A stretch of DNA of 64,000 nt from Ignavibacteriota bacterium (GTDB taxonomy: Bacteria; Bacteroidota; Ignavibacteria; Palsa-1295). A model generated the notes under the pieces. That model was not told the DNA's origin. It saw nothing but the letters and a program-made list of their open reading frames with translations, and made no database searches. The stretch is from positions 736,001 to 800,000 of the forward strand of contig CAWBEI010000002.1 of the NCBI GenBank assembly GCA_963787835.1, in the 5' to 3' direction. Made by a program: the position numbers and the translations under genes. Below, piece after piece: positions 22,963 to 49,770 of this stretch (positions within the stretch are counted from its first letter, which is position 1; each line of letters starts with the position of its first letter).

Positions 22963-24840
22963 CTATTTCCGAAGCATAAGCCATGCGCCCGCTCGTATGC
23001 GTTCAAGCGTGGTATCGGTGGCTGGCGCAAGCCCCTCAGGCCGATACACGCGGAAGACATTGAATCGTGCAAGAGGAAGCGTGGGAATAAATGGCGGCCC
23101 ATTTTCCTGAGTAACATCTTCTAAGATCGGTTCGCCTTGCAGATCGATCAGGCCGGATTGCATAATGAGCATATCTCCCGAATGAACGAAATCGCTGGAT
23201 AGATAATCTTCAACCGGCAACCTCTGCAAAAGTTGTGCGGAATCCGAGACATGTTTTGTGAGTGCAAGAAATTGCTTTGGCGAGTTTAAAATACGAGAGA
23301 TTCCCCACTCCCGTGCCAGCCTGCGAGTAACTAATACTTTGTCGCCTTTCCATTCGGTAGCATAGGGCACTGCCGCAAATTCAAAGAAATTCTGATCGGC
23401 TGTCGGTCCATCCAGATTTGGACGAACGGCACGAGAGTATCGCTGTGTATAGCCGAGATAATACGCGGCAATGGGTTCCGGCACAAGCCAGAAAGCACGG
23501 CGGGTCGAGGTTACACCAACCTTGTCTGGCTTCTCCAATGAAAGCACCGCGTGCGCAAGGCCTGCATAATCGACATCGTTTCGAAGGTATTTGAAATAAT
23601 TGGAATAGGAATTGTGAGCTCCCATTACGAGAAAAAAGATAATTTCATAACGGGCAAGGAAAAGCACAATATCCATTCCTTTCGCTTTTGGAAGTTTTTC
23701 CTCCTTTGCTTCCATAAAGGCGAACATCCAGCGATTTGGATACCATTTCATGAGGCGTTCCAGAGCCTCGAGTACAGCCACGATCAGGATACACCCAAAT
23801 GGAACAAGCACCAATAAATACCGCTCGAACATCCTGCCGAGCACAATGAGCGCAGCCGTTTGCAATAGCAGAAATATAGTGAGGTGCAGCATCGCTTTTG
23901 ACGATCGTACTATAGTGGCGGACTTATCATCTTGCATCAAACTTGCCTTTCCATGCTTTCGAAGAAGCAGCCAAGCCAACAGGAATGATCCTGCGAACAC
24001 GACCTCCGTGATTCCAAAGAAAACAAGATGAATCTTTGAGAGATAATAATTCAACGCATACGAGAACGTATAACTTCCCGCTTTTCCCATGAACGCGAAC
24101 AACCAAACGGATTCATCGTACGGCCAGATCATCAGGGTTACGAAGGCTCCGAACATCATCGCACAAAGTCCTGCACACGCAGTAGAAATGCGATACCGGC
24201 GAGCGACCACGCCACTGAACATCCAAATAGCTCCCGGAACGACGGCATTGTACTTCATGATGAAGGCCAACCCCCAAATACATACCAAATAGAACAGTAG
24301 CATCCATTTGCGCGGAGCTGTACGCCACGTATTCGTGGCAAGGCGGTCGAACCCATAGCAACCAAGCAATACGAAAAACACTTGAAACGGGTCGGCGAAT
24401 AACACTCGGCTAAAGGCGACAGCGAACGGATGCAGCGCGAGCAAAATTGCACTTGCGTTCGCGATCTTTTCATGGAATAACCGGCGTGCCAACCCATACG
24501 CCGCAGCGATCGTGGCTACACCGATCAGCGCCGATGGAATACGCAGCAGGAAATCACTCGCAAGGCCCGCAGTGCCGAGCATCTGCGCGATCATCCAGAC
24601 GAACGGCGCGTTCGACATTGCTTCCCACATCCGCGTGTGATTCTGGATGATGTCGCGCGCGCCCACGGCAACGGTCGCTTCATCCAGCAGCACGCTATGG
24701 GCAGAAAGCCACAGGATCCTCGCGAGAAGACCCAATGTCATCGCCAAAAGAAGCGGCCAATATTGTTTTAAAGTGCGGGAAATAGGATTCTTGAGATGAG
24801 TATTACTAATGAAATGACCTTTGGCAAGCAATTGTTTCAT
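22963..24840 (-). CDS. GT-C glycosyltransferase, ArnT/PMT-like
   Basis: LDEA loop-1 motif, RIPSALIG, HPFAVAFSRVLFADP, MKY; ~11 TM segments plus soluble C-terminal domain. Confidence 0.85.
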   Translation of the reverse strand: MKQLLAKGHFISNTHLKNPISRTLKQYWPLLLAMTLGLLARILWLSAHSVLLDEATVAVGARDIIQNHTRMWEAMSNAPFVWMIAQMLGTAGLASDFLLRIPSALIGVATIAAAYGLARRLFHEKIANASAILLALHPFAVAFSRVLFADPFQVFFVLLGCYGFDRLATNTWRTAPRKWMLLFYLVCIWGLAFIMKYNAVVPGAIWMFSGVVARRYRISTACAGLCAMMFGAFVTLMIWPYDESVWLFAFMGKAGSYTFSYALNYYLSKIHLVFFGITEVVFAGSFLLAWLLLRKHGKASLMQDDKSATIVRSSKAMLHLTIFLLLQTAALIVLGRMFERYLLVLVPFGCILIVAVLEALERLMKWYPNRWMFAFMEAKEEKLPKAKGMDIVLFLARYEIIFFLVMGAHNSYSNYFKYLRNDVDYAGLAHAVLSLEKPDKVGVTSTRRAFWLVPEPIAAYYLGYTQRYSRAVRPNLDGPTADQNFFEFAAVPYATEWKGDKVLVTRRLAREWGISRILNSPKQFLALTKHVSDSAQLLQRLPVEDYLSSDFVHSGDMLIMQSGLIDLQGEPILEDVTQENGPPFIPTLPLARFNVFRVYRPEGLAPATDTTLERIRAGAWLMLRK

Positions 24841-26368
24841 GCCCATCGCAACCACTCCATTATTTCTCCGCCGTTTCTGGCCCTCTGTCGTCTATCTTGC
24901 CGTGATGGCGATGGCAGGATGGCTCTCGCATTTTGCCATTCTGATCAACGATATTTTCCCACTGAACTGGCAGGCAGAGCATCTTACTATTACCACACCC
25001 GAGAGTTTTTACAACGGCTTTTTCCCCATTGGCTTCCCACTACTGCTGCGCTTGGTGTCTTTCACAGGCAATTCCATTCTTACTCTGATCCTCTTTCAAA
25101 TAGCGATTGCGCCGTTCTATGCAGTGCTCGTTTATCGCTTGATAGACAAACTCGCCCCCGGCCCCAGCGCCGCGATCATACTTCCCCTCGCGCTTTTTGC
25201 ACCGCCAATAATCCACGCCATTCTCGGCGCGACTCCAGATTTTTTTGCTGCGATGGCCGTCCTTGGAGGGTGCCTTTTTATTATTCGCGAGAATGGAAAA
25301 TGGAATTACCTTCTCGCCGGACTCGGAGTGGGATTTGGCTGTCTTTTCCGTTCACATATTTTAGTGCTCGCTGTTACACTTTCTCTTTCGATCCTTCTTT
25401 TTGAAAAAGATCACCGCCTGCGCGCCACTGTAGAATTTTGCCTCGGCGTCCTGCCTTTTGTGATCGCGCAGGGACTGCTACAGGTCTGGTCTGGCCACGG
25501 ATTTTTCGAAAATGCACAAGCCTTCAATATCTGGAAAGCAATGCACGGCATGGATTGGAGCAACCCACCCGCGCTCGCACACACAAGTGCAGTACGTGTG
25601 ATATTAGCAGAGCCTGCATTTTTATTCACATCCACCGGTAAGTGGATCCTCCAAAATTCGCTATACTTCATCTCCTTTGTCGCGGGAACGATCTTTTTGT
25701 TGGTGCATAGAGGAGCGGAAAACTTTGCACGATTTAAACCGCTTCTACTCTTGGCTGTGGCATCGTTCGTGTATCTATTGATCACCTCTGTCGGTAAAAG
25801 TACAAGCGCATTCACGCCGGTCATTCCATTTGCTGCCGCTTGCGTAGTGCCAATGATCGACTTTGTATTTTCCCTCAGCGGAATGAAATTTCTCGACCGC
25901 CATCTTAAGATTCTTGCGGGAGTATGTTGGATCTCTTGTATTATTGGGTTCTATCTGTTTATCGAGGGACAAGCCGGTCGAGTGGAAGACTACGTAAACG
26001 TCGAACGCGTATTGGAATTGCATTCCGTGAGTGCATCATCACCGTCCACAATCGAACGATCGAGTACAACCCTTAAAATTTATACGGACGATTACGATCT
26101 ATATTTTCCAGACCTGCAATATCGCATTCCGCTCACCAGTGGAGGTTGGGCAGCAGTGGGGTTGCCACTTTATCCAAAATATTTTCCACATATTCGCAAT
26201 ATTTCGGCAGAAAAAGAACGAGACGATCTTATCCAAAATGGGATTCAGTGGGCTATTTACCGCACCCCTCCTTATGACCCGCTCGGTTATCAAAATGTGA
26301 AAAGCGATACCTTACACTTCAGGCTAACCTATCGCACTCGCTTTCATGAGATCTATCGCGTTCAGTAA
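24839..26368 (+). CDS. GT-C-like polytopic membrane glycosyltransferase (inverted relative to cluster)
   Basis: Multiple TM helices, FFPIGFP, ATPDFF, LFR; C-terminal soluble domain. Confidence 0.7.
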   Translation: MPIATTPLFLRRFWPSVVYLAVMAMAGWLSHFAILINDIFPLNWQAEHLTITTPESFYNGFFPIGFPLLLRLVSFTGNSILTLILFQIAIAPFYAVLVYRLIDKLAPGPSAAIILPLALFAPPIIHAILGATPDFFAAMAVLGGCLFIIRENGKWNYLLAGLGVGFGCLFRSHILVLAVTLSLSILLFEKDHRLRATVEFCLGVLPFVIAQGLLQVWSGHGFFENAQAFNIWKAMHGMDWSNPPALAHTSAVRVILAEPAFLFTSTGKWILQNSLYFISFVAGTIFLLVHRGAENFARFKPLLLLAVASFVYLLITSVGKSTSAFTPVIPFAAACVVPMIDFVFSLSGMKFLDRHLKILAGVCWISCIIGFYLFIEGQAGRVEDYVNVERVLELHSVSASSPSTIERSSTTLKIYTDDYDLYFPDLQYRIPLTSGGWAAVGLPLYPKYFPHIRNISAEKERDDLIQNGIQWAIYRTPPYDPLGYQNVKSDTLHFRLTYRTRFHEIYRVQ

Positions 26369-27909
26369 CGCATTACCGGAGCGGGAAGCATACCGTTTCC
26401 TTTCTCATTCAACTGACGCAGGAACTCTCTTTTGCAATCGATATAAAACGGACTATTAACATTCAGCAGCCATACCAGCGGATAAGGGAATGCTTCCGTA
26501 GTTGCAACAGCCTCGAAAGAAGGTGATCGTGCAAGACCATAAGCATCTTCAACCCAGCCGCCGGTATCGCGGGAATACACCGGCAACAACATAATATCCG
26601 GCTGCTCTGCGCGAAGAATTTCACCTCTTTCCGCGATGGTATGTGCATGCGCGATTCGTGTATCGTTCAACCCGAAGAGATCGATATGATGAACGTCCGA
26701 CTTATACACAACATATCCGGCATCCCCGTACGCGAATTGAAGCGAATCGGAATGTGGCAGTGTTCGTAGTACCCGAACGATGGGATCCATACTGGCATCC
26801 CACACTTCCTCATGTGCAGCAAGCGCCTGCTGCGTGCGCGGACTGAATACCGAGAGCATTATTTGCACAACAGTCATCAGAACGGTGGGAACTATGAGAG
26901 ATCGCAGGTGCATACGTTGAGCGAGCGCGTGCGTGCCAATGGCCGCAGTAATGCACAGCATCGTAAACACGGGCCAAAGATATCTATCGTAAAGCCCTTC
27001 GAGCGGAAGTACGAATAAGTAAAACGCAAGTAAGGCTACCACCCACAGCACGGGAATCAACACTGCTTTTTCATGCCATTTACGAATCGCGAGCGTTAGC
27101 ACGAGCAACACCAGCATACTTACAAAGAACAATCGAACATATTGCAATCCTGGCAGCAAGGAATGCGGATTTGAAAGGACTTTTACATAGAACGAATTCG
27201 GGAGCCACTCGCCGAAATAACAATACTTCCAGATCGCATATACTATTCCAGGCAGAACAAATGCTATCACAAACGCACGAATGACCTTCTTCAAATTCGA
27301 TCGTTCAAACGGCGGCTTTGATACCATGGCAATGGCCACTAGAATGATCAATCCTATTAATGCACCCTCTGGACGAGTAAGCGTAGCAAGGAACGCAGCG
27401 CCGAACGATAAAAACAATCGATCCCGGACTGCCCAAAGAACAGCAAGTGTTATAAACATCACAAACAGGCTCGTCTCCATCCCACTCAATGCGTTGACCC
27501 ACGTCAGTGGAGTGAAGAGAAAGAAAGCAGCCGCAAGTAAACCAGTCTCTACACTATACGCTTTCGACCCTATTCGATACAGAAGGATACTTGTTATGAT
27601 AGTAGAGACAACACCAACGATCTGTGCAGCAACAAGAAGATCTGATGTGACAGATCGTATCCCGGCGAGAAGCAACACATAGAGAAAATTGGTGTATCCT
27701 TCCGTGGGCGGTCCGCCAACGTTCCACACAAAGCCCAACCCAGCAGCAACATGCTCCGCATAACGAAAAGTGATAAACACATCGTCGAACGGAAATCGTA
27801 AACGGAATTGCCAGATAAGCACGGATATAACAATTCCAACCAGGCCAGCCACGGCTGGATAGAGCTTTTCCAGTCGCCGATGATGAAGGTTCTGCGCCGG
27901 ACTACTCAT
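26362..27909 (-). CDS. GT-C glycosyltransferase, AftB (arabinofuranosyltransferase)-like
   Basis: DDVFITFRYA...G.G.VWN...EGYTN, SGMET, TRPEG, YFGEWLPNSFY, IDLFGLND. Confidence 0.8.
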   Translation of the reverse strand: MSSPAQNLHHRRLEKLYPAVAGLVGIVISVLIWQFRLRFPFDDVFITFRYAEHVAAGLGFVWNVGGPPTEGYTNFLYVLLLAGIRSVTSDLLVAAQIVGVVSTIITSILLYRIGSKAYSVETGLLAAAFFLFTPLTWVNALSGMETSLFVMFITLAVLWAVRDRLFLSFGAAFLATLTRPEGALIGLIILVAIAMVSKPPFERSNLKKVIRAFVIAFVLPGIVYAIWKYCYFGEWLPNSFYVKVLSNPHSLLPGLQYVRLFFVSMLVLLVLTLAIRKWHEKAVLIPVLWVVALLAFYLFVLPLEGLYDRYLWPVFTMLCITAAIGTHALAQRMHLRSLIVPTVLMTVVQIMLSVFSPRTQQALAAHEEVWDASMDPIVRVLRTLPHSDSLQFAYGDAGYVVYKSDVHHIDLFGLNDTRIAHAHTIAERGEILRAEQPDIMLLPVYSRDTGGWVEDAYGLARSPSFEAVATTEAFPYPLVWLLNVNSPFYIDCKREFLRQLNEKGNGMLPAPVMRY

Positions 27910-29492
27910 CGTGATAATTGAAATAGAAGCAGTGTGTCTTGCCAGTGTAACCCATCGAAATAATCGCGGCCCATGTCACCATTCGTGCCAGGATAGCTCC
28001 CCTTCAATATGCCAACTCTCATTACTTGCCGATAGAATGGATCGTCCCGCATTCGATCTTTAGGATAGACCGGCGAATTATACAACACCGCATAATTGAC
28101 ATGCTCCTTTATAAGGAACGAATCTATTGGCAGAAAATATAGTGGGAATGATATAAAATGATCGGTCATCGCCTGAATGCTGGTATCCTGCGAAAGACGG
28201 TCAAGCGCAAACGGCTCGCACACAACGCGCGGCTTACCCGTTCCTTGCCAACTCGAACGAATACTCTCCGTTAAACTATGAATATTCGCTCGATTGGATC
28301 GGTCGATGGCGGCAGCAGTGGACATCGCATTCCAACTATCATCAAATCCAAACCGAACGCTGACAAGAGCAAGCAGCGTAAAAACTGTTACACCAACATA
28401 TCCCCAGCGTTCTACGATGGTAGTAGCAATGAGTGCAATACCGAGAAAAATAAGTGGAAGCAGGTGCATCAAATAATTGATCTCCGCGCCTTCGAGAAGC
28501 AGCCAGCTAAGAAACACAATCCCAACTGCTATTACAAATGAATGTCGATGCTCGGAACTTCGTCTTGGCACGATCACAAACAAGAGCGCTAATACAAAAG
28601 CCTGAGGAGCCTCCGATACGAATTGCTTAAAGCGGATCACAATATTAGAAACCTGAACCGAACGCGAGAACGGACGCCGTATAGGGATCGAAGAAATGAC
28701 ATCGTGAAACTGCACGGGACCAGCCGTTACTGCAAAAAGAGTAAGAATCCCGCTCGTGCAATAATAGACGGCGACCAGAATCGACATCATTCCCGCTGCT
28801 CCAGCAATTGCAGCGGCTGTCAGCGACCACCGCTGCATTCCCCCAAGCCTCCAGAGGAAGTACAAAGAAACCGGTCCTAGCAAGGTTAGTAAATGGATCG
28901 ATGAACTAAAAGCCAGAAAAATGACAACCGCTCCATATCCGAACCAACCCCATGTGCCAAGTTCCTTCCTCTGTTGTGCAAATTTTGTGCATACCACAAC
29001 AAAAGCAAGCACGATACCGCCCGCTAATAGGTCCGGCCTCACAGAATGACTCGCAAAAAAGAACGAGCGCGTACAAACAAGAAGCAACGACGCAAGTGCG
29101 GAAGCAAACCGAGATGCCCCCAACCATCGAGAGCAAAAATACATTGACAAGAGCAACCCGAACGCCAACACTGCTGTAACTACTCTTCCAACTGCAACAG
29201 GATCGTGCCCAGCGACCAATGCTGGGAACCCATATAGAAGCGAAGAAAGCCACGTCATGCTAAGCACAAGCCCCTTGCCATGTTCAAGTGTCGAGCCAAT
29301 TGCCAACGGATAGTGAACAACGCCGGTCGCGATCTGCTGCACTGCTTCGGTCATGAGCCACGTTTCGTCACCGAACCACCGAAGCGAATTCGGCTGCGGA
29401 AAAATAAAAAGCGACTGGAGTTGCAGCGCGAACAGCACACATGCCAGCGTGAGCATCGAAAATGCGATCGTATTTGGGATCCGTATCTTCAT
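27906..29492 (-). CDS. GT-C glycosyltransferase, WxGDE paralog
   Basis: WFGDETW, SHSVRPD, C-terminal DMGRDYF...DTLLLF; ATG 29492. Confidence 0.8.
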   Translation of the reverse strand: MKIRIPNTIAFSMLTLACVLFALQLQSLFIFPQPNSLRWFGDETWLMTEAVQQIATGVVHYPLAIGSTLEHGKGLVLSMTWLSSLLYGFPALVAGHDPVAVGRVVTAVLAFGLLLSMYFCSRWLGASRFASALASLLLVCTRSFFFASHSVRPDLLAGGIVLAFVVVCTKFAQQRKELGTWGWFGYGAVVIFLAFSSSIHLLTLLGPVSLYFLWRLGGMQRWSLTAAAIAGAAGMMSILVAVYYCTSGILTLFAVTAGPVQFHDVISSIPIRRPFSRSVQVSNIVIRFKQFVSEAPQAFVLALLFVIVPRRSSEHRHSFVIAVGIVFLSWLLLEGAEINYLMHLLPLIFLGIALIATTIVERWGYVGVTVFTLLALVSVRFGFDDSWNAMSTAAAIDRSNRANIHSLTESIRSSWQGTGKPRVVCEPFALDRLSQDTSIQAMTDHFISFPLYFLPIDSFLIKEHVNYAVLYNSPVYPKDRMRDDPFYRQVMRVGILKGSYPGTNGDMGRDYFDGLHWQDTLLLFQLSR

Positions 29493-29508
29493 TATCTCGG
29501 TAGATTCA

Positions 29509-31125
29509 TCATCGTTGGTTAACGCGATACAGCCGCAATGTGTCCGGCTCCGATAACGTGGTATCGAAATACGATCGTCCAATATCGGTGAAGTATCCGG
29601 GACGTTCCCATACCGGGGTAGCGATATGAGCGAGCGCCGCGCGGATCGGCCCCACCTCACGCATGTAGTCCGGCTTTAGAGCACTCGAGTAAAGCAGGAC
29701 ATAATTCACCCCTGCACTTCGAAGCACAGAATCCACAGCCACGTTCTCCAAAGGATATTCAATAAATTGCGTCGTCATAAGCCGCACATTGGTATCCCGC
29801 ATCACTTCATGCACGGCTGGATTGAACGCAAGCACAAGTGGATGCTGGCCAGAATCAGGTTGCTCTACTTCTCCAAGAGCTGCCCCAACGGCAAGGGCAT
29901 TTGATGTCATCAAATGGTAACCTTTTCCATGCCTGCCCGGAACATCGCGAAAAGCAACGATCGCAAGAACAATACTAGCACACGCAATGGCCCATGTCCG
30001 CAACTCTTCTCCTAACAGTCGTTTCAGTGCTAGCGCCACTACAACGCTAAGAACAGGCAGCATATAAATGAGATAGCTCGATGGGGCCGAGCTTTCAAGT
30101 TCCAGCCATGAAAAGATCACTACTGCTAATATTACCGAAGTTTTGGAAACAGAAAGTGGGATAGGTTTACGAATATATTGAACAATAGCGAGAACTGCAA
30201 TTGATGCGAATATAAAAATATACCCAAACCCATACATACTTAACATACTCCACCGCTGAACGAGGTTTGCGGCTTGCACCGAGCGTGAATACATCCGCAA
30301 TGCAGGAATATCGTGAATGTTCAGAGCAAACGAATTACTACCCTGCGACCCAAAGAGTGTAGCGCCGCCACGAAGCGCAGATATTGCGATCAAGAATAAT
30401 AAGAATATCACACCCCCACCAATGAATGCAGCAATCATTCGAGGACGATGATTGTGGGAATGGAATATGGCGGTCACTAACGCAGCCAGAGTAAGAGCGA
30501 TCGTCACATGGATGGTGATCAGCATGGTGGCCGCAATTGTGCATCCAAGAATGGCAGCACGAAATATCGTCAGCTCCCGATGAATGCGTAGAAGATAATA
30601 AATTCCGCCAACGATCGCAAGCGCGGAAAGAATATCGTACCGGGCAGAGTGGCTGGTAAAGAGAAACGACCGTGAGGCGAGAAGCAAGAATGCACTGAAG
30701 AGTGCGAGCAGCCTGTCAGAGGTGATCCTTCGTGCGATCTCGTATAAAACAACGAGCAGCGTGAAGGCAAATATCGCGGTAATGCTCCTGCCGAGCAACA
30801 CAATATCCATTTGCTGTGGGCTGACCAGAGCCGCTGGAATCCCATACACGATGGCTGGCACCCACATATTGCCAAAAATAATTCCACTTCCGTACAAGAG
30901 ACTGGAACCAAGTGCATAAGGATGTTGAAAAATCCCGTGCAATATCTGGTTACGGAATTCAAGCATCAGCCAACTCTCATCCCCCCACCAAAGATAGGAA
31001 TCGGGGATGGGCGTCGAATAGAGCGACAGCATTTGGAGCAAGAACAAAGCGGACGCAAACGCGAGCAATCCGGAAAATACGATTTCCTCGCTTCGGGAAA
31101 AAAGAGATGAAAACTTAATGCGCAA
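29509..31125 (-). CDS. GT-C glycosyltransferase, WxGDE paralog
   Basis: WWGDESW, SHSARYD, DIGRSYF...DTLRLY. Confidence 0.8.
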   Translation of the reverse strand: MRIKFSSLFSRSEEIVFSGLLAFASALFLLQMLSLYSTPIPDSYLWWGDESWLMLEFRNQILHGIFQHPYALGSSLLYGSGIIFGNMWVPAIVYGIPAALVSPQQMDIVLLGRSITAIFAFTLLVVLYEIARRITSDRLLALFSAFLLLASRSFLFTSHSARYDILSALAIVGGIYYLLRIHRELTIFRAAILGCTIAATMLITIHVTIALTLAALVTAIFHSHNHRPRMIAAFIGGGVIFLLFLIAISALRGGATLFGSQGSNSFALNIHDIPALRMYSRSVQAANLVQRWSMLSMYGFGYIFIFASIAVLAIVQYIRKPIPLSVSKTSVILAVVIFSWLELESSAPSSYLIYMLPVLSVVVALALKRLLGEELRTWAIACASIVLAIVAFRDVPGRHGKGYHLMTSNALAVGAALGEVEQPDSGQHPLVLAFNPAVHEVMRDTNVRLMTTQFIEYPLENVAVDSVLRSAGVNYVLLYSSALKPDYMREVGPIRAALAHIATPVWERPGYFTDIGRSYFDTTLSEPDTLRLYRVNQR

Positions 31126-39084: not shown

Positions 39085-39097
39085 CGGAGTACGGTCG

Positions 39098-40123
39098 TCA
39101 GTGATATTCAACCTTTCCACTCTCGGTAATGATCGGGACGTGGCGCATCCACAGAAGCTTTTCCCACCATGCACGATGTGTTTTATACCACGCGATGGTT
39201 TGTTCAAGCCCCTGATCGAACGAACGGCCTGGTTTGATTCCCAGAACTTCGCTTGCTTTGGCCGTCGAAGAAATATGCCGATCGACCTGACCTGGCCGGT
39301 TGCCTATGTGTGAAATGAGATCATCCGGCTTTTTCAGAATATCCAGGACCATTTTTGCAATACTAAGCACATCCAGTTCAAATCCGGAACCAAGATTGAA
39401 CACTTCGCCCTGGATCTTCTCGATCGGCGCGTGCATTACGTGGTCGATCCGTTCGCAGGTATCTTGTACGTAGAGCCAATCGCGAAAGGCATTACCATTC
39501 CCATGGACGGTGAGAGGCTCATCCAGCAAAGCACTTGTAATAAATCGTGGGATCACCTTTTCCAGATGCTGTTTCGGGCCATATTGATTGAAGGGCCGCA
39601 AAATGCAGGCAGGAATTTTATAACTCGCAATGTACGAATAAACCAAACGGTCGGCACCGGTTTTTGCGCTGGCATACGGGGAAAGTGGATTGAGCGGGTG
39701 CTCCTCCGTCATCGGCGCGGTGAGTGCGGTGCCATAGACTTCGCTCGTCGAAATGTGGATAAAGCGATCCAAATCTTTCTTCCGCGTCACGGCATTCGCG
39801 ACAGCTTGGGTTCCGAGCACGTCCGTCACATAAAAGATCTTATTATCGAAGATCGAACGGGCTACGTGGCTTTCAGCAGCAAAATGGACGACTACATCGG
39901 AACGTCCGACAAGCTGGCTTACCAGATCGTCATTTGTAACGTTCCCATACCAGAACTCGAACCGTTTGGATGATTTGATATCGTCCGGGATATTATCCGG
40001 CGAACCTGCATAGGTCAGCGCATCGAGCACAATAATATGATACTCCGGGTATTTACGGAATACGTATTCGAGGAAATTACTTCCAATAAATCCGGCTCCG
40101 CCGGTGATAAGAATGGTCTTCAA
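39098..40123 (-). CDS. rfbB: NDP-sugar dehydratase, dTDP-glucose 4,6-dehydratase-like SDR (STSE instead of STDE)
   Basis: TGGAGFIG, DALTYAG, HFAAESHVARS, STSEVYG, PYASAK, YGPKQHLEKVIP, RDWLYV. Confidence 0.7.
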   Translation of the reverse strand: MKTILITGGAGFIGSNFLEYVFRKYPEYHIIVLDALTYAGSPDNIPDDIKSSKRFEFWYGNVTNDDLVSQLVGRSDVVVHFAAESHVARSIFDNKIFYVTDVLGTQAVANAVTRKKDLDRFIHISTSEVYGTALTAPMTEEHPLNPLSPYASAKTGADRLVYSYIASYKIPACILRPFNQYGPKQHLEKVIPRFITSALLDEPLTVHGNGNAFRDWLYVQDTCERIDHVMHAPIEKIQGEVFNLGSGFELDVLSIAKMVLDILKKPDDLISHIGNRPGQVDRHISSTAKASEVLGIKPGRSFDQGLEQTIAWYKTHRAWWEKLLWMRHVPIITESGKVEYH

Positions 40124-40160
40124 TTAATAGTTAAGAATGAGGAATTAAAAACGAAGGGAA

Positions 40161-42164
40161 TTAGGATGAAGTCCAATGCAGTGTGGCCGCACTTTCTAAA
40201 ATATCCGCGCCCAAATGCACCCACGTATTGATAACACGCTGAGTAGATGCTTGGGTTTTCGTTAAAAGTCCGGCGGCATTATGCTGACGCGCATATTCGA
40301 AGGCGGCAATAACCAGGGCGCGATACACGCCGCGCCCGCGCGAATCGGAGGCTACGGCGTTCAGAGAATCTTTCCACCACAGGGCATTGCCAAAAACTGC
40401 CATCGGTTCGAGGGCGATGTAGCCACAGACTGCTCCATCGAGCTCCGCAGCCAATATCAACGTGCTCTGCGCATGGCTTCGCGCGATATTCGAAAACCAC
40501 TCGCGAAATAGATCCTGGCTGCGCTCTATAGGAATCATAGGCTCAAGAAAGAAGCGATCCTGAATCATGGTGTGATCTCCGAACGATTCTGCTGAAATTT
40601 TGGCAAGGATAGGTTCATCTTCCGGACGCATTGGGCGAACGCGAAGTCCATTGCTGAACTCGACCGAATGTCCATCTCTTGTAAATCCTGAATTTTGCAG
40701 CACACGATCATATTTTGAACTCGGCGCACCCAAGGTAACCAAAAGATCGACAAGGTGAAATCCAGCCGATTCAAATGCACGTGTAACGAAAAGATCTTCA
40801 CTTGAAACGCGCGCATCGAGCAAACGAAGCTTTCGCTTTTCTGCAAATTCCAGAGCACCGTGAAGCACGCGTTCTAAGGCAAGAATTCGTCCGGCTTCAA
40901 CAGCACCACCAAGCGCATTTGCATAGAGGATCCGTCCGGAAGGAATTCCGAGCAACCGCGTATCCCATTCCAATTCTGTCAGTAATGCAGCAGCAGATAT
41001 ATGGTCACCATCACGCCCCCAAAAGACGAATGGGTCAGCGCTCCTCCATGCTGCAAGATGGTAATCTGTCAGCGCACGCGGTTCACTATTCGCGAATACT
41101 TTTGCGAGCGGAAGATGTCGATCGCCTGCGATTACTTGATGAAGCTCTTCTTGCTCAGAATTTGATAATGCTGAAAGACGTTGCGATAAAATTCCCTTAC
41201 CTTCATCCTTCATCCTTCCGCCTTCATCCTTTGATGTTGAGGTAAGATCTCGAAGCAAATAAAGCGGCCTTCCCTGCGATTCGCGATAAATGCGGCTGAC
41301 ATACTCGCCCATCAGCCCAATAACGATAAGCTGCAACGCGCCAAAGAAAAAGATCGCGATCATGATGGAAGCATATCCTGGAACTGCATATCCTCCAAGA
41401 ATTTTGCGGATCACGATATAAATGACAGCAAGCGTGGCAAGCGCTGCAGTGGACATTCCCGCCACAGTCGCAAATTGCAGCGGCGCGGCACTGAAACTCG
41501 TTGCGGTGCTGAGGGCCAGTTTAATGAGACGCCAGAACGAATACTTCGTTTGGCCGGCAAAACGAGCGCCATGCACGACCGGTACGCTTGTTTGCTTATA
41601 CCCGATCCACCGGACAAGCCCCGGAAGATAACGTGCCTTCTCGCGCATCTGCCGGAGATCATCCGCAACATTCTTGCGCATGGCACGGAAAATGCTGGAA
41701 TCGAGCCGCACTTCCGAACGGGCAACGCTATTCATCAGCCATAAAAAGAGATGACTGGAAAGATTCTTGTACCACCTAAATTGCCGCGTCTCGCGCTCGC
41801 CCCACACCACATCATACCCTTTATCCAGCTTGGCGAGCAGCTTGGGAATTTCTTCCGGTTGATCCTGCAGATCGGCATCCATCATAACGATGACATCGCC
41901 AACAGCATGATCGAGCCCGGCGGTGAGCGCAATATGATGTCCGAAATTTCGCGTGAAGCTGAAGACACGAATATGCTCCGGATCGCGCCCCCGAAGTTGC
42001 AAAAGAATATTCAGCGAATCGTCGCGCGAGCCATCATCGACGAGAATAATTTCGTAGGAGCGCCCAAGCGCAGCCATCGCTGCTGTAAGCCGGCGATACA
42101 GCTCCGCAAGCACTTCCTGCTCGTTATAGACCGCGACGACAATGGATAATTCTTTAGGACTCAC
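40161..42164 (-). CDS. GtrB/ArnC-like polyprenyl-phosphate GT2 fused to WecD-like GNAT acyltransferase
   Basis: VDDGSRD, RNFGH, MDADLQDQP, two TM helices, GEYVSRIY; then LEWDTRLLG, DRFF..P, NAVASDSRGRGV, TKTQ. Confidence 0.85.
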   Translation of the reverse strand: MSPKELSIVVAVYNEQEVLAELYRRLTAAMAALGRSYEIILVDDGSRDDSLNILLQLRGRDPEHIRVFSFTRNFGHHIALTAGLDHAVGDVIVMMDADLQDQPEEIPKLLAKLDKGYDVVWGERETRQFRWYKNLSSHLFLWLMNSVARSEVRLDSSIFRAMRKNVADDLRQMREKARYLPGLVRWIGYKQTSVPVVHGARFAGQTKYSFWRLIKLALSTATSFSAAPLQFATVAGMSTAALATLAVIYIVIRKILGGYAVPGYASIMIAIFFFGALQLIVIGLMGEYVSRIYRESQGRPLYLLRDLTSTSKDEGGRMKDEGKGILSQRLSALSNSEQEELHQVIAGDRHLPLAKVFANSEPRALTDYHLAAWRSADPFVFWGRDGDHISAAALLTELEWDTRLLGIPSGRILYANALGGAVEAGRILALERVLHGALEFAEKRKLRLLDARVSSEDLFVTRAFESAGFHLVDLLVTLGAPSSKYDRVLQNSGFTRDGHSVEFSNGLRVRPMRPEDEPILAKISAESFGDHTMIQDRFFLEPMIPIERSQDLFREWFSNIARSHAQSTLILAAELDGAVCGYIALEPMAVFGNALWWKDSLNAVASDSRGRGVYRALVIAAFEYARQHNAAGLLTKTQASTQRVINTWVHLGADILESAATLHWTSS
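41200..41230. repeat. Heptamer repeat (CCTTCAT)x4 in frame in the GT2-GNAT linker
   Basis: ccttcat ccttcat ccttccg ccttcat cct, encoding KDEGGRMKDEG. Confidence 0.8.
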
Positions 42165-42227
42165 CGGGCAATATTTCTACATTGTATGTAAAAGAAGAAA
42201 TTAGAAGAATAAATCCTTTCATGAATA

Positions 42228-43709
42228 TCATTTCGGCACAAACACGAATTCCGGCCTCGTGGCGGCGTCTCCAACGCGAGTGAGATAGATGTTCGGCTCC
42301 GCGATCATACGTCCCACGTAAGTGTAATGCGAGACGGAATCTAAACGAAATGTATCGCTCTCTTCCATGATCACGGCGCTGAACCGGTGCCGAGCGAATG
42401 CAGAATCGAGATCGGCCTGCAATCGCGCGGAAGTAGTGTCATGCACGCGGAGCACATCGATCGTTGCCAGAAGCTGTGCGTGGGAAGCTTTCCCAGCCTG
42501 CCGCGCGATATAACCGTGATACGGAATATACACTTCCCCCGGCATCGCGCGTAGCTTGCGCATGAACTCATCGCCGCCCGCACGCTGCTTCGCACTTGCG
42601 ATCACCATCTTCCCCGACAGCGGATTGAAATAGAGCGCCACAAACTGAAACAGGAACGCAAGATACACATACCGCGCAAATGCCGGACGAACATTCTTCA
42701 TCTCATTCAGCGCAATCGGTAAGAGCGGCAGCACGAACGCGGCAAAGGGCATCATCACATTGCGGTCGCCGCCTTCGTTACCGAGGCTTACCGCTCCGGC
42801 AGACAGTGCGGCGAGGGCCATCATCACAATGAGTCCCGTTTCGCTCTTGAAAAAAGCACGGGACCACACCCCAACCCCCTCCTTCTTAAGGAGGGGGAGT
42901 ATAAACAGTGTAATTGTTGATGCCGCAAATGGTCCCAAAGCAAAATTTGGGAATGCATCGAACATGCGAATGATGGAAAAATCCGCGCGCTTTGCCGATG
43001 GGATGGTGAACATATAGAATGTGGACCATCCATGGGTAGCGCCAAAGATCGCAAAATGAGCAATGAGTGTCAGAACGACCGCGCTCGCTGTAAAGATCAT
43101 TCCCAGCTTTTTATCTTTAAGCCAAAACCAGACTACTAAAGGAGGCAGAAAAAAAACAGCCTGCTGTCTCGTCAAAAAAGCGAAGACAAAAAGAATAGAC
43201 GTGGCAAGCGAACCAATTATCCCCGATAATCGCATTGGCAAAAACGCAAGAAGAATGACTATAGCGGTGAAGAACGCATCGTTGCGCACAATGTCGAAAT
43301 AATATCCTGTTGCATGATACGTTGCAAAATACAGAGCAATCGTTAAGAAGGCAAACAAGCGATTTTTGGTGATACGCTGAACGATCCAGCCCATTAGTCC
43401 CGCAGTAATCAGCGTAGAAGCGAATGAAACGATCCGTCCCGCAAAGAATCCGATGCCAACGATCTTTGCCACACCTGCAACAGCATAATAATAGGCCGGA
43501 GGATACAGCCAGGGAATGAAATCGATCGTTGGCGCTGCATAGATCGGTTTGCCGGCAAGTATTCGGACAACATGATCGAGCATTGCGCCCTCCATCCACT
43601 CGATCTCATAGGGATACATAAGACGCATGACGGAAAGCGTTAGGACCACTGCAATAAATATCGCGCCGAGCGCAATTGCCAGCCAGCGAGTGAGGCGTTC
43701 CAGTGTCAT
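42228..43709 (-). CDS. GT-C glycosyltransferase (YPYExEWxEG type)
   Basis: YPYEIEWMEG, YPPAYY, DIVRND; ATG 43709 overlaps upstream stop codon (ATGA). Confidence 0.8.
   Translation of the reverse strand: MTLERLTRWLAIALGAIFIAVVLTLSVMRLMYPYEIEWMEGAMLDHVVRILAGKPIYAAPTIDFIPWLYPPAYYYAVAGVAKIVGIGFFAGRIVSFASTLITAGLMGWIVQRITKNRLFAFLTIALYFATYHATGYYFDIVRNDAFFTAIVILLAFLPMRLSGIIGSLATSILFVFAFLTRQQAVFFLPPLVVWFWLKDKKLGMIFTASAVVLTLIAHFAIFGATHGWSTFYMFTIPSAKRADFSIIRMFDAFPNFALGPFAASTITLFILPLLKKEGVGVWSRAFFKSETGLIVMMALAALSAGAVSLGNEGGDRNVMMPFAAFVLPLLPIALNEMKNVRPAFARYVYLAFLFQFVALYFNPLSGKMVIASAKQRAGGDEFMRKLRAMPGEVYIPYHGYIARQAGKASHAQLLATIDVLRVHDTTSARLQADLDSAFARHRFSAVIMEESDTFRLDSVSHYTYVGRMIAEPNIYLTRVGDAATRPEFVFVPK
42860..42902. 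repeat. REP copy in frame within a GT-C gene
   Basis: Identical to 17146-17187 except for one inserted base. Confidence 0.9.
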
Positions 43710-44452
43710 CGTTTTCTCAGCACGCAAAAAAGTGATGACCCGAACGCCGGATGGAACCACGATATCTGGCTCGGCTTGACAAAAAGATAGAGGAGGATCT
43801 TATTCATGCTCGGCGAAGGAATGCGGTCCTCAAAGCGGGATTTCAGTTTAAATAATCGGGAGATAGTGCGAAGTGTTAGAATGGGAAGGAATGCGAACGC
43901 ATTGGCGTAGTCAAAATGCAGCACGTCAAATTCAGACTGGTGCGGCGCGAACAGCAATCGAAGCATGGATTTCGAATAGCGGCGAAAATGGCCGAGCGAA
44001 ACATCCCAATCGCTCCAAAGGCTCATGAAGGCAGGTACATTGATGATAACGATACCGCCCCGTTTTGTGATTCGCAGAAGTTCTGAAAACGCAAGCGTAT
44101 CGTCTTCTACATGCTCCAGCACATCGAGCGCAATAGTAACCTGACTGGTCGAGTCTTTTAGAGGGAGATCGAGAATAGATCCTTCGAGCAGTTCCGTGCC
44201 CTTTCGTTCTTTTGCAAGTCGGCGGGCCTCTGCAACATATTCGATGCCGATCACGGAAATTCCATTCGGCTCGAACCGTCCTCTAAGTTCCCGGACCAAT
44301 TCTCCCGTGCCCGCTCCGCAATCGACGATCCGATCACCCTTTGCGAGTTTTGCCGCTCGCTCGATCCAATATTGGACGAGCACCCGTTTGCCCTTGTAGA
44401 ACCAATGCTCGCGCTCAACTTTTTCCAGCGCATCGTATTCAGCAAGCTGCAT
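43706..44452 (-). CDS. Class I SAM-dependent methyltransferase
   Basis: HWFYKGKR, VDCGAGTG, LDVLEHVEDD, VPAFMSLWS, HFRRY. Confidence 0.9.
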   Translation of the reverse strand: MQLAEYDALEKVEREHWFYKGKRVLVQYWIERAAKLAKGDRIVDCGAGTGELVRELRGRFEPNGISVIGIEYVAEARRLAKERKGTELLEGSILDLPLKDSTSQVTIALDVLEHVEDDTLAFSELLRITKRGGIVIINVPAFMSLWSDWDVSLGHFRRYSKSMLRLLFAPHQSEFDVLHFDYANAFAFLPILTLRTISRLFKLKSRFEDRIPSPSMNKILLYLFVKPSQISWFHPAFGSSLFCVLRKR

Positions 44453-44455
44453 AGA

Positions 44456-45421
44456 TCAGTGGTCGTCCGGTTTTGGTGATCGAATGATCTCGCTGATCAC
44501 GTAATGCGGCCGTTGTTTCACCTCATCATAAATACGGCCGAGATATTCGCCTAAAATCCCGATCGAGATTAGCTGAATACCTCCCAACAGTAAAATAGCA
44601 ACGGTCGGGGTGGTAAAACCAGCCACAACATTGATATGCAATACGCGCATAATGACTAAGAAGATCGCGTACAGAAAGGAAAAGGTGCTCACAATAAATC
44701 CCAGCGTCCAGATTGCGCGGAGCGGTTTGAAGCTGAAACTAAAAATGGCGTCAAACGCATACCGGACGAGGCGCCCGAAAGACTGCTTTGGTTTTCCAGC
44801 AGCGCGTTCTTCGCGGTCGTAGAGCACTTCAGCTTGCTCATAACCAACCCAGGTTCGCAATCCAGGCAGGAACCTGTTTCGCTCATGCAACCGCAGCAGG
44901 TCGTTCACTGCTCGGCGGTCCATCAAGCCAAACACTCCGCTGCCGGTCTCCATTTTCATGTCGCTTACGCGAGCAAGCATCGAATGAAATAGCGCGAACA
45001 GCATTCCTTTTATTCCCCGCTCGGCACGCGAACGGCGTTTTGCAACTACTACCCGATTGCCTGATAACCACGACCGAACAAGATCGGGAATTAATTCCGG
45101 AGGGTCTTGCAGATCACCATCCATAATAATGACGGCATCCCCGGTGGCATATTCTAATCCCGCCTGGATCGCGGATTGATGTCCAAAGTTTCGGGACAGA
45201 TTGATGACGGCAAGACGTGCATCCCTCACAGCAAAATTCGAAAGCATTTCCAGCGTTCGGTCGCGCGAGCCATCGTTGACAAGCACCCATTCGCATTCCA
45301 GCCCAAATTCCCGTTCGAGGGAATCGAACACATGCGTCACCCGCTCGGAAAGCTCACTCAACAGTGCTTCTTCGTTATAAATCGGCATGACAATGGAAAT
45401 GGACTTGGCAGGCATAATCAA
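44456..45421 (-). CDS. GtrB/ArnC-like polyprenyl-phosphate glycosyltransferase (GT2)
   Basis: VNDGSRD, SRNFGHQ, MDGDLQDPP, two C-terminal TM helices, GEYLGRIYDEVKQRP. Confidence 0.92.
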   Translation of the reverse strand: MIMPAKSISIVMPIYNEEALLSELSERVTHVFDSLEREFGLECEWVLVNDGSRDRTLEMLSNFAVRDARLAVINLSRNFGHQSAIQAGLEYATGDAVIIMDGDLQDPPELIPDLVRSWLSGNRVVVAKRRSRAERGIKGMLFALFHSMLARVSDMKMETGSGVFGLMDRRAVNDLLRLHERNRFLPGLRTWVGYEQAEVLYDREERAAGKPKQSFGRLVRYAFDAIFSFSFKPLRAIWTLGFIVSTFSFLYAIFLVIMRVLHINVVAGFTTPTVAILLLGGIQLISIGILGEYLGRIYDEVKQRPHYVISEIIRSPKPDDH

Positions 45422-45428
45422 ACAGGAC

Positions 45429-46949
45429 TTAGTGGCGTCTATATAAAGTAAAAGCGCCTATCTTGGTTTCAGCATAATAATTGGAATCGAGCCTCGCCCC
45501 AAGTTCCGTAAAATCCTCCCGAAGGATCTCGTGCCCCAGCCGTCCGCCATAATACTGCCGAAATGCCTCCGGTGCATCGCAAACAATGAAGTAGATGGGC
45601 TTCTCTCTTCGCATATCATTCATATATTCCTCGCGCCACGCTCGCTGGAATGGCTGAAGACTATCGCCGACCCCACGCATGGTAATGGCATGAAGTGTTT
45701 GAAATCGGCTGGCGGTAAGCAACCCAGCTCGGAATTGAGGATAGCTATACGGCCCAAACATTTGGACGGTGTCGTTGGGGCGAGTATGTGCAATGAGGTA
45801 ATCGCCAACTTCTGTTTGGACGCGCACTCCAAACTCCGGTGAAGGCTCGTAACGATCGTAGGACTCGTCGAGGGAATGGATGCGACCCTTCCCAATATCG
45901 ATCAATACACGCTGGATGGTATTACCTCGAAAGGTCGTGATAAGATAATAGATAACGATCGCGATAGGAACTGCAAACTTAATACATCTCCACCTTTGAG
46001 CGAGGAAATCCGCAATGCGCATCCATCCAATTGCCGAAAGCAAAATAAACAGCGTCATCGCCGGATGATAATGATACACGCTATGCCGGTAAAGCATTAA
46101 CAGCGAAATCGCACTTGACGCAAATAGTGCTGCCCAAAGGTAAAGGACTGGACGCTCTTTCTTCCATAAATAATAGAGTGCAACCGCAACAGCGACTATC
46201 GAAATTGCATAAAATCTGACCGGTTCCCACAAACTAAATGAAGCTCCACTACCACCATACACTTTGAGATTAAACAGGATCGTGGCATCCCAAAATTCTT
46301 TCAGACCTCCATAAAACCAATATAGAATGATTGTAAAAAAGATTGGAACGACTCCACCAAGAACGAAGTGCAATACATTTCGCCGATCATCACTTGTTAG
46401 AAAATACCAAACCAAGAATATCACTGCGTAGAGTGCATACGTTGGTCGGAACAGGAATGCCAAACCGCACAACGCGCCGACAAGAAATGACTTCTTCTTT
46501 TCTAATGCAAGATAGAACGCCACAATGAGCATGATCGAAACATATGTATCGCGCTCACCTGCCATCCACAGGCCCTGTTGAACATAATACAATGCTGCCA
46601 GAATCGCCGCAAGCATTCCCGCACGAATATCGTAAAGTCGCTCGCCAATCCGAATGAGAAAATAACTTCCTACAAGCTGAAGAAGAATATCGAATAGATG
46701 GAAGGCTATCTGCGAATGTCCACTAATGAGAATTTGTATCGCATGGACGAGGATTATTCCCGGAAAATTCTGATCCCACGAGCCAAGATATGGAAGATGT
46801 CCTTTCAAGCCAAGATCTGCCATGTAGGCATACAGCGCGTTGTCGTTATTAAAGGGATAGGTGAGCGTGCAGGAAAAAATCGCTGCACAAATGAGAAGCG
46901 TTACCCCTATTCCTGGGCCAAAAGATTTCTTGCTGTTAGTGAGCTGCAT
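45429..46949 (-). CDS. GT-C glycosyltransferase (LPY..SWD.NFPG type)
   Basis: NNDNALY, LPYLGSWDQNFPGI, AGERD, FRPTY. Confidence 0.8.
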   Translation of the reverse strand: MQLTNSKKSFGPGIGVTLLICAAIFSCTLTYPFNNDNALYAYMADLGLKGHLPYLGSWDQNFPGIILVHAIQILISGHSQIAFHLFDILLQLVGSYFLIRIGERLYDIRAGMLAAILAALYYVQQGLWMAGERDTYVSIMLIVAFYLALEKKKSFLVGALCGLAFLFRPTYALYAVIFLVWYFLTSDDRRNVLHFVLGGVVPIFFTIILYWFYGGLKEFWDATILFNLKVYGGSGASFSLWEPVRFYAISIVAVAVALYYLWKKERPVLYLWAALFASSAISLLMLYRHSVYHYHPAMTLFILLSAIGWMRIADFLAQRWRCIKFAVPIAIVIYYLITTFRGNTIQRVLIDIGKGRIHSLDESYDRYEPSPEFGVRVQTEVGDYLIAHTRPNDTVQMFGPYSYPQFRAGLLTASRFQTLHAITMRGVGDSLQPFQRAWREEYMNDMRREKPIYFIVCDAPEAFRQYYGGRLGHEILREDFTELGARLDSNYYAETKIGAFTLYRRH

Positions 46950-47772
46950 CTGGCTTTTTGATAGTCACAGAAAGAACAACAGAGATAATTAAGACCGCGA
47001 TCACTACGCTCAAGGCAACGGTATTACTTATGATCGCCGATGGCCAAAATGCTGGAATGATCATTTTCACGCCAATGAACCACAAAATGACACCCACACC
47101 CTGCTTGACGAATCGGAATGCATCATGCGCTCGCTCCAGCAGAAAATAAAGCGAACGCAGGCCCAATACAGCGAGCATATTCGAAGAATAAATGATAAAG
47201 GGATTTCGAGTAACGGCAAAGATTGCCGGTATGCTATCGACGGCGAAGATCACGTCCATCACCTCGATCACACAAACGACAAGAAAGAGTGGGGTTGCAA
47301 CTCGCCGCCCGTGTTCACAAATAAAGAATCGGGTTCCGTGGAACTCCGGCGATACTGTTACAAATCGTGATACTAATTTGATGGTCCGGCTCTTTTCTGG
47401 TTCGAATTCCTTTTCGCCGCCGAAGGCCATGACAAATCCGGTATAGATCACGATTGCGCCGAAAAGATATAATACCCATTCGAACGATTGAATCAGGGTA
47501 ACACCTGCAAAGATAAGCAGCCCACGTAAGACAAGGACACTGATGAGTCCGTAGTTCAATGCCCGCCGTTGCGCTTCACGTTTCACCCCGAAGAACGTGA
47601 AGAGCATAAGAAACACGAACAGGTTATCGACCGAGAGCGCTTTCTCAAGCGCATAGCCGGTGAGAAATGCCTCGGCGGGAACTGCGCCCCAATAGGAATA
47701 GATCGCAAGAGCCGTAAGCATCGAAAGGCCGATCCAAACGGTGCTCCAGGCAAGTGCGCGTTTAAAAGTCAT
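46936..47772 (-). CDS. TerC/Alx-family membrane protein
   Basis: EKALSVDNLFVF, DVIFAVDSIPAIFAVT, SNMLAVLGLRSLY. Confidence 0.95.
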   Translation of the reverse strand: MTFKRALAWSTVWIGLSMLTALAIYSYWGAVPAEAFLTGYALEKALSVDNLFVFLMLFTFFGVKREAQRRALNYGLISVLVLRGLLIFAGVTLIQSFEWVLYLFGAIVIYTGFVMAFGGEKEFEPEKSRTIKLVSRFVTVSPEFHGTRFFICEHGRRVATPLFLVVCVIEVMDVIFAVDSIPAIFAVTRNPFIIYSSNMLAVLGLRSLYFLLERAHDAFRFVKQGVGVILWFIGVKMIIPAFWPSAIISNTVALSVVIAVLIISVVLSVTIKKPDAAH

Positions 47773-47814
47773 AAGGCAGAACCGGGATTACGCAGATTTG
47801 GGTTCACAATACTA

Positions 47815-48618
47815 TCAACCACTATTCTTCAGTAAAAACTCTCGCTCTTCTTTAGATAGACTTTGCATTCCACTGCTTGCAATCTTATCAAGAATAGCAT
47901 CGATGCGAGCTTCGATCGCTTTGGGATCGTTCAGTACGACTCCTTTTACAGATGCAGTCCTTCGAACTGGCCTGCGCATCAGCACATCCTCAGCGCGATT
48001 GAGAAACGCTCTCCCAAAACTATATTGCCGGTACATCACATGGAAACAAACGATAGCACCAAGTGTGCCAAAAATAGGACCAAAGAGGTTTGCGGCGCTT
48101 GAATCCAAACGAGTTCCATTCATGGGGATCACGGAAAGTACAAATACTGCAACTGCGATCATCCAGGCCTTTAGCCAAAATAATCCTAAAATGGAGATCT
48201 CTCGCTTAGGCCACATATAGGCAAAACCGCCCAGCATGAACATCGTGAGAATGCCTGGCCCGGCAAGTGCTGCATCTGGGCTGAGAACGGAAAAGATCAG
48301 CCCGCCAGCAACGATCGTAATGGCAAGCATAATGGTAAGCCGCTTGGTATGAATGATCGTCTCCAGTTCCCCACCGAACATAGCAATGATGATCGCTATC
48401 CACAACAAGGAGAAAATAGCAGGAAGCAAACTCTGCATCGAAGCAGCCATGAAAAAGGGATACGTCACGAGCCGCCATACCTGAAACCGTCCCCAAAGCA
48501 GTTCCGGGTAGAGCGGCATCGCCGAAACCATCATTCCCGGAACGATCAGCGAAAGCAACGCCGATCCCACGAGGGCAATTATTAGTCCTTTACAGAGCGG
48601 GGGAAGGTTCCGAAACAT
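47815..48618 (-). CDS. Rhomboid-like membrane protein with C-terminal IDAILDKI domain, probably inactive
   Basis: QVWRLVTYPF, GGELE, IDAILDKIASSGMQSLSKEEREFL; lacks GxS and catalytic His. Confidence 0.75.
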   Translation of the reverse strand: MFRNLPPLCKGLIIALVGSALLSLIVPGMMVSAMPLYPELLWGRFQVWRLVTYPFFMAASMQSLLPAIFSLLWIAIIIAMFGGELETIIHTKRLTIMLAITIVAGGLIFSVLSPDAALAGPGILTMFMLGGFAYMWPKREISILGLFWLKAWMIAVAVFVLSVIPMNGTRLDSSAANLFGPIFGTLGAIVCFHVMYRQYSFGRAFLNRAEDVLMRRPVRRTASVKGVVLNDPKAIEARIDAILDKIASSGMQSLSKEEREFLLKNSG

Positions 48619-48657
48619 TATAGCAGCATCCGTTCGACAATATCTTCTCCATGAACA

Positions 48658-48689
48658 ACAAAAGACCGGCGATTGCGCCGGCCTTTTGT
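48658..48689 (-). terminator. Rho-independent terminator
   Basis: ACAAAAGGCCGGCG-CAAT-CGCCGGTCTTTTGT downstream of 48715..49650. Confidence 0.75.
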
Positions 48690-48714
48690 AATATTAGTAG
48701 AATTTGATTTTAAT

Positions 48715-49756: not shown

Positions 49757-49770
49757 ACAATTTCTTAAGC
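49757..49770 (+). repeat. 14-bp direct repeat, left copy
   Basis: ACAATTTCTTAAGC, identical at 51924-51937. Confidence 0.6.

Follow-up and report, generated by a model that had tools for sequence, protein, structure and literature searches.

A 64,000-nucleotide stretch from the genome of an uncultured Kapabacteria bacterium (Bacteroidota), which we call the window, carries an array of twelve genes for polytopic membrane proteins (A to L, within positions 22963-46949). The array is real and conserved, is rightly read as an array of GT-C glycosyltransferases, and is larger than the window shows. The window corresponds to G000:C2:736001-800000, where G000 is the source genome (3.57 Mb, 97.9% complete) and C2 one of its contigs. 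We document here the genes of the array, their fold, their conserved acidic residues, and their co-occurrence and synteny among relatives. As for function, our preferred reading, whose probability falls a little short of even, is that the genus-conserved GT-C set (the twelve array proteins and one unlinked protein) adds single sugars in the periplasm from polyprenyl-phosphate donors to an envelope glycan, most likely the O-glycan of exported proteins.

Gene content and fold of the GT-C array

All twelve open reading frames (ORFs) were intact at the expected coordinates, with 7-10 hydrophobic segments each in a crude hydropathy scan, and the GC content over the array (~50%) matched the remainder of the window. 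BLAST within the locus divided the proteins into six sequence types. Five belong to the WxGDE family, D (27906-29492), E (29509-31125), F (31115-32770), G (32767-34374), and J (37357-39084), with pairwise identities of 26-36% (36%, 30%, and 31% to F for D, G, and J, respectively). The YPYExEW type comprises H (34371-35831) and K (42228-43709), which are 40% identical, and the SWDxNFPG type comprises I (35828-37360) and L (45429-46949), at 27% identity. The singletons are the ArnT/PMT_2-like A (22963-24855), B (24821-26368), and the AftB-like C with its DD motif (26362-27909). B lies on the plus strand, an inversion found in 7/7 same-genus loci, and the other eleven on the minus strand. These counts, types, and orientations agree with a preliminary description made from the sequence alone; its size class of ~490-630 aa is corrected to likely true lengths of about 486-600 aa, and the start of A is uncertain (orthologs of 547-620 aa). 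The tight coupling it reported was also seen: with the likeliest starts, 8 of 15 junctions overlap in the minus-strand run from a rhomboid-like gene to gene C, and neighbouring genes are at most 63 bp apart. A Pfam scan of 43 proteins of the window likewise gave no Wzx, Wzy, Wzz, GtrA, or GT4. Promoter and terminator counts at 39000-50700 were close to shuffled values, Rfam gave no match, and no tRNA was found.

Structural modelling and sequence comparison supported the assignment of all twelve proteins to the GT-C superfamily. The top 20 structural matches of the F model were all GT-C, with ALG12 and ALG9 as the best Foldseek matches. PMT_2 matches were above the cut-off for A (E 1.7e-12), B (E 1.9e-6), H (E 8.5e-8), I (E 5e-10), L (E 5.8e-10), and E (28.5 bits), and D, G, J, and K were assigned through paralogy. 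Most members of the WxGDE family lack a Pfam model; their look-alikes in the ESM Atlas were PMT_2-type clusters from other phyla. The single sequence of gene C gave no match until a profile (A4) was used, which matched AftB (PDB 9dlf) over profile positions 9-259, the N-terminal half, with an E value of 2.4e-13. The profiles of the WxGDE (A2) and YPYExEW (A5) types gave nothing significant against PDB sequences. Compared by HHalign, six pairs of types reached 88-97% probability (the five other types against SWDxNFPG, and B against WxGDE), and the remaining nine pairs reached at most 55%.

The acidic loop-1 motif held up when orthologs were compared. The residues D58/E59 in A, D44 in B, D42 in C, E35/E37/E40 in the YPYExEW type, and D36/D60 in the SWDxNFPG type were invariant, D48/E49 of the WxGDE family were at least 90% conserved (95 sequences), and W-x-G-D-E was kept in 47 of 49 tree sequences. 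From the fold and the linked GT2 genes we infer that the array enzymes transfer sugars from lipid-phosphate-linked donors. A thirteenth GT-C (708 aa, 13 transmembrane segments), which adjoins an aminotransferase gene unlinked to the array, was considered as a flippase and ruled out as one, since it was modelled as a GT-C.

Conservation, duplication, and synteny

WxGDE genes occurred in 18 of 61 relatives, namely the source genome, 14/14 other same-genus genomes, and one genome in each of three other genera of the family. None was found in the 26 genomes from other families or in 300 further genomes of the phylum. Synteny was conserved among relatives: out of seven same-genus loci, four had all twelve genes in the same order, two (G003 and G009) lacked H together with I, and one had the block from K to the rhomboid-like gene elsewhere. 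The four genera with the system share a core of SDR (short-chain dehydrogenase/reductase), GT2a, GNAT, aminotransferase, at least two WxGDE genes, and C, the GT2a part of G021 being lost at a contig end. The array falls into two modules, which lie apart in G001 and G021, so that the proposed ordered assembly line working on one product is unsupported. The gene order kept across the genus counts for a conserved acceptor.

In a quick tree of 49 WxGDE proteins, D, E, F, G, and J each formed their own clade, with support of 100 for the same-genus members, which bears out local duplication. The frameshifted gene G of G001 was excluded from this tree by a length filter; it lies in two frames at L024:17969-19673, like some other genes of that genome, and is probably an assembly error. 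The duplications are older than the genus and every copy has been retained, which argues for distinct functions of the five paralogs. A sixth WxGDE paralog of the source genome (G000:C6:103336-104991) is solitary, with a long branch and no adjoining glycan genes, and solitary copies recur in relatives.

The expansion of GT-C genes is general in the lineage. Each genome of the genus gave 12-26 PMT_2 matches; the range was 4-19 for the family's other genera and 0-9 for other families. The source genome has about 39 GT-C-like genes in total (31 + 4 + 4), of which about 27 lie beyond the array, scattered through the genome. Multi-GT-C gene sets, described earlier as typical of mycobacteria and eukaryotes, are thus not confined to them.

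Predicted sugar donors

The array genes are accompanied by genes for donor synthesis, all on the minus strand. The extended SDR (39098-40123), a predicted nucleoside diphosphate (NDP)-sugar 4,6-dehydratase, had been called RmlB-like. It is indeed closest to dTDP-glucose 4,6-dehydratases, but it is not RmlB: it reads STSEVYG where RmlB has STDEVYG, it scored 322.9 bits against the RmlB model (cut-off 365), and a true RmlB (381 bits) adjoins rmlA on contig C4. STSEVYG was found in 119 of the best 120 SDR homologs, and T-S-E is known from GDP-mannose dehydratases, LegB, and UDP-xylose synthases. Orthologs of the SDR at 80-96% identity occurred in 16 relatives, and the gene is present in 17 of the 18 WxGDE genomes. 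The subfamily was absent from the 400 other genomes of the phylum that were searched, and its ~70% homologs include Nitrospirae and Desulfobulbaceae records; therefore, the donor module was probably acquired from outside the phylum.

The DegT aminotransferase gene (G000:C2:1437429-1438607), unlinked to the array in the source genome, has the same distribution as the WxGDE genes (18/61 genomes) and adjoins the array in G007, G008, G017, G018, G021, and L077. Its product is nearest ArnB among solved structures and is also nearest PseC models. GT2a, a GtrB/ArnC-like polyprenyl-phosphate sugar synthase, is fused to a WecD-like GNAT domain in a 667-aa protein (40161-42164; sll0501 (GtrB), E 2e-71; ArnC, E 2e-65; WecD model, E 1e-7, below cut-off). 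The likeness of the GNAT to WecD stands, but it is the C-terminal half of this fusion and not a separate gene; the fusion was found in 7/7 same-genus loci and is split in G017 and G018. GT2b (44456-45421) has PgfS (NF047588) as its best model (297 bits; cut-off 500). Structure-sequence and model matches agree that both are GtrB/ArnC-like synthases, as first described, and both carry two C-terminal hydrophobic segments.

Together, the SDR, aminotransferase, GNAT, and GT2a would yield polyprenyl-phosphate loaded with a 4-acylamino-4,6-dideoxyhexose, a prediction that leaves nucleotide and stereochemistry unspecified. The SDR would dehydrate an NDP-hexose (or N-acetylhexosamine), the unlinked DegT enzyme would aminate C4 of the dehydrated sugar, the GNAT would N-acylate the 4-amino sugar, and the fused GT2a would load the product onto polyprenyl-phosphate. 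The five WxGDE paralogs, which are distributed like the donor module, probably use this donor at different acceptor positions.

A second donor is predicted from GT2b and the neighbouring class I S-adenosylmethionine-dependent methyltransferase (43706-44452; PF08241, E 4.6e-15). Both belong to the second module, in which K travels with the methyltransferase, GT2b, L, and terC. GT2b, whose orthologs occurred in 17/35 family genomes, would, probably with the methyltransferase, provide K and L with another sugar, possibly O-methylated. The estimate of about two donors holds for the locus but not for the genome, which encodes further donor synthases, including a polyprenyl-phosphoribose (DPPR) synthase unlinked to the array. 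The AftB-like C may draw on a polyprenyl-phosphopentose pathway encoded elsewhere; a DprE1-like match in the genome was weak only. Since the aminotransferase and the thirteenth GT-C are likewise encoded elsewhere in the genome, the locus is not a self-contained unit. Two other regions of contig C2 carry related genes. At 680783-688328 (L047:4783-12328), a polyprenyl-phosphate phosphoribosyltransferase (NF008977, above cut-off) is flanked by four GT-C-like genes, forming a second mini-array whose donor is likely a pentofuranose. At 365457-367511 (L050:7457-9511), an ArnC-like GT2 with a charged low-complexity N-terminal extension of ~330 aa adjoins a GT9 gene.

The operon is headed by terC and a rhomboid-like gene (46936-48618), a part of the described span whose genes had been left out. 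The TerC/Alx metal-homeostasis membrane protein (46936-47772, minus strand; TIGR03718, above cut-off) is encoded by a gene whose stop overlaps the start of L, and terC adjoins GT2b in 15 of 17 genomes. According to the available text of PMC10550928, TerC proteins metalate exoenzymes with manganese. This would fit, and TerC may supply Mn2+ here. The loosely linked rhomboid-fold protein with DUF6576 (47815-48618, minus strand; Pfam) lacks what we take to be the catalytic Ser/His motifs of rhomboids in an alignment of 5 orthologs.

Candidate acceptors and comparison with known systems

The organism bears the sequence signature of Bacteroidota O-glycosylation. In 652 crudely predicted secreted proteins, D[ST][AILVMT] was observed 2864 times against 1234 expected (2.32-fold), with ratios of 0.80-0.96 for control motifs and 1.17 for cytoplasmic proteins. 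In 50 type IX secretion system (T9SS) cargo proteins, the top of the 150 matches listed, the ratio was 3.0, with 8.4 sites each, and all 12 array enzymes carry the sequon in their C-terminal tails. The third-position preference mostly agrees with the motif in the available text of PMC10897501, although Phe was not enriched. It should be noted that this signature says nothing on the part played by the array. As a marker of the array, sequon enrichment was rejected as non-specific, since it is class-wide. The array was also ruled out as a phylum-wide initiating enzyme, because its WxGDE genes are far more restricted than the enrichment.

TMEM260-like GT-Cs (PF11028) fit an initiating role better and are candidate O-glycosylation initiators. 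They were found in 61/61 relatives; of 14 controls, B. thetaiotaomicron alone had them. In the source genome, two of them lie with a DPM-synthase-like GT2 and a YfhO GT-C after lepA-lepB-hemN (G000:C5:41067-50382; L184:5067-14382). The available text of PMC8729774 favours a two-step model, with the core made first and the outer glycan later, states that the transferase and core enzymes of Bacteroidota O-glycosylation were not known in 2022, and suggests that O-glycans of cargo can be the dominant surface glycan of T. forsythia. Another locus (G000:C2:216050-229404; L061:4050-17404) contains Wzy_C, GT-C, Wzx, GT2/GT4, priming transferase, DegT, and DPM-like genes, and its Wzx, with its own GT-C neighbour, is conserved in 27/35 family genomes; this locus is a possible scaffold for the array. 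On our preferred reading, the array would extend or decorate a glycan started by such family-wide machinery (TMEM260-like GT-Cs, the Wzx locus), and a flippase would export the donors. A fuller form of this reading is rather unlikely as a whole. It would have a periplasmic, stepwise outer O-glycan made as in the lumen of the endoplasmic reticulum, with a TMEM260-like start at thousands of D-S/T-x sites, extension by the 13 GT-Cs (five of a new family) with a previously undescribed polyprenyl-phospho-acylamino-dideoxyhexose and a methylated sugar, and manganese from the co-transcribed TerC.

Several observations weigh against O-glycan extension by the array. The sugars are assigned by family resemblance, with scores under the curated cut-offs (277 against 631 bits and 230 against 529 for the ArnB- and ArnC-like homologs in the equivalog models). 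No GtrA flippase (PF04138) was found in the source genome by a search that was positive in 8 of 14 controls, and no SMR flippase (PF00893) was found there either; the flippase search returned two unlinked PF03706 proteins, and an EamA gene adjoins another GT-C elsewhere. Genomes without the array also carry terC, with gene surroundings that recur in some array genomes; the linkage of terC may therefore reflect a chance insertion. In a test on samples of at most 100 kb per genome, drawn from 20 genomes, sequon enrichment stood at 1.88 for 7 array genomes, 1.63 for 8 array-lacking kin, and 1.66 for 5 other families (0.88-3.52 in single genomes), and a paired ortholog test (0.94 in the genus, 0.85 in other array genera, 0.77 in array-lacking kin) tracked kinship. 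The outer O-glycan enzymes of characterised Bacteroidota in the available text of PMC8729774 are soluble glycosyltransferases, not GT-C arrays. Furthermore, the source genome also makes lipopolysaccharide (LPS; LpxC) and has Wzx/Wzy loci, and no result ties the array to proteins over LPS.

Second in likelihood, though on balance unlikely, is a much expanded Gtr-type system, in which these enzymes and donors would decorate LPS (its core, its O-chain, or the A-LPS-type anchor of T9SS cargo) after polymerisation. The conserved Wzx locus with its GT-C neighbour points this way, as do the presence of LpxC, SprA, PorV, and PorU-type C25 and T9SS C-terminal signals numbering at least 148 above the cut-off (150 of 250 candidates were scored). 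In the available text of PMC11127046, moreover, the use of GtrB-type donors best known from diderms is the modification of O-antigen by periplasmic GT-Cs. However, C25/PorU-type genes were present in 35/35 family genomes, whether the array was there or not; anchoring thus does not require the array, and its candidacy as T9SS anchor machinery is weakened. Thirteen transferases are also many for one repeat unit, and the array is fixed, unlike O-antigen loci, which usually vary between species. Elsewhere in the window, a PorZ-like beta-propeller protein with a C-terminal Ig domain is encoded at 182-2638 (plus strand), ~20 kb from the array, and an M1 peptidase at 15439-18678 (plus strand) lies in two ORFs (565 + 483 aa); in G002, G009, and G014 one ORF of 1051-1075 aa occupies this position, so a break or an assembly error is likely.

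We consider it quite unlikely that there is no single pathway at all and that co-expressed transferases merely share donors, each with a different acceptor (proteins, LPS, or lipids). The six unrelated sequence types with remote profile similarity only, the separable modules, the joint loss of H and I in several loci, and the scattered GT-C genes would suit such an arrangement, but the gene order and frame overlaps that stay fixed throughout the genus, and the core common to four genera, do not. We give still less credit to de novo synthesis of a glycolipid or lipoglycan on a lipid anchor, like mycobacterial phosphatidylinositol mannoside/lipoarabinomannan (PIM/LAM) or the lumenal phase of glycosylphosphatidylinositol (GPI) and N-glycan synthesis. 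ALG12 and ALG9, the best matches of F, elongate lipid-linked glycans, C is AftB-like, and the genome has a polyprenyl-phosphoribose synthase; however, the inositol synthase PF01658 was found in 0/35 family genomes, and the earlier GPI/LAM analogy fails on the inositol anchor. An Arn-like modification of lipid A phosphates with an amino sugar, leaving surplus transferases, is hardly credible. The SDR, ArnB-like aminotransferase, ArnC-like GT2, and ArnT-fold transferases do mirror arnABCT, but the SDR is not ArnA (39 bits; cut-off 777; no formyltransferase domain), Pfam found neither a formyltransferase nor a deformylase in the locus, the strongest PMT_2 gene of the genome adjoins two GT9 genes elsewhere, and 13 enzymes are too many for the sites available on lipid A.

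Characterised diderm GT-C systems have about one transferase per lipid donor. Here, 13 transferases form a fixed set tied to a donor pathway dedicated to a rare sugar, and what is particular is a new GT-C family together with this predicted pathway in a diderm with dense O-glycosylation signals. The four enzymes of the pathway are soluble or near-soluble and suited to reconstitution, and the pathway predicts a diagnostic sugar for metaproteomics. With a protein O-glycan as acceptor, the array would be a new route to bacterial glycoproteins and would offer novel transferase specificities; with LPS as acceptor, it would be a decoration system of a familiar kind, though unusually elaborate. We found no published description of the locus or lineage in a literature search that left subscription papers mostly outside and did not cover supplements.

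The array resembles the Arn system (ArnABCDTEF; ArnT, PDB 5f15, presumably CAZy GT83) in its oxidising SDR, DegT aminotransferase, N-acylation, ArnC-like synthase, and ArnT-fold GT-Cs. It differs in having a 4,6-dehydratase and a GNAT in place of ArnA, and 13 transferases of seven types against one; no ArnD or ArnEF was found in the locus by Pfam, PF00893 was absent genome-wide, and deacetylases were searched within the locus. With GtrABC and the Citrobacter GT136 pentofuranose system, in the available text of PMC11127046, it shares a polyprenyl-phosphate-monosaccharide synthase and a GT-C acting outside the diderm inner membrane; unlike them, its locus has no GtrA, SMR, or MATE flippase, about six GT-Cs per synthase instead of one, and a dedicated rare-sugar pathway. 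Like mycobacterial arabinan synthesis (AftA-D, EmbA-C; AftB, 9dlf), it has many GT-Cs per lipid donor, an AftB homolog, and a DPPR synthase in the genome, but here that synthase is unlinked, the predicted donor is an amino-dideoxyhexose, and there is no inositol lipid anchor. The D-S/T-x sequon enriched in exported proteins is the one described for Bacteroidota in the available text of PMC8729774 and PMC10897501, where the known outer-glycan enzymes are soluble; by contrast, WxGDE was not found in 300 other genomes of the phylum, nor the SDR in 400. The array belongs to none of the Arn, Gtr, and PIM/LAM systems, because searches for ArnA, GtrA, and inositol synthesis found none of them. S. mutans SccN/SccP with SccM/SccQ (available text of PMC11754754) and PgfS (NF047588) also have two synthases and several GT-Cs, a donor shared by more than one transferase, and no assigned flippase; they differ in their monoderm rhamnan or protein acceptor, plain glucose or N-acetylhexosamine donors, and two or three GT-Cs. 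By analogy, the array would work like a multiplied Arn/Gtr three-component system and like SccN/P with SccM/Q of S. mutans.

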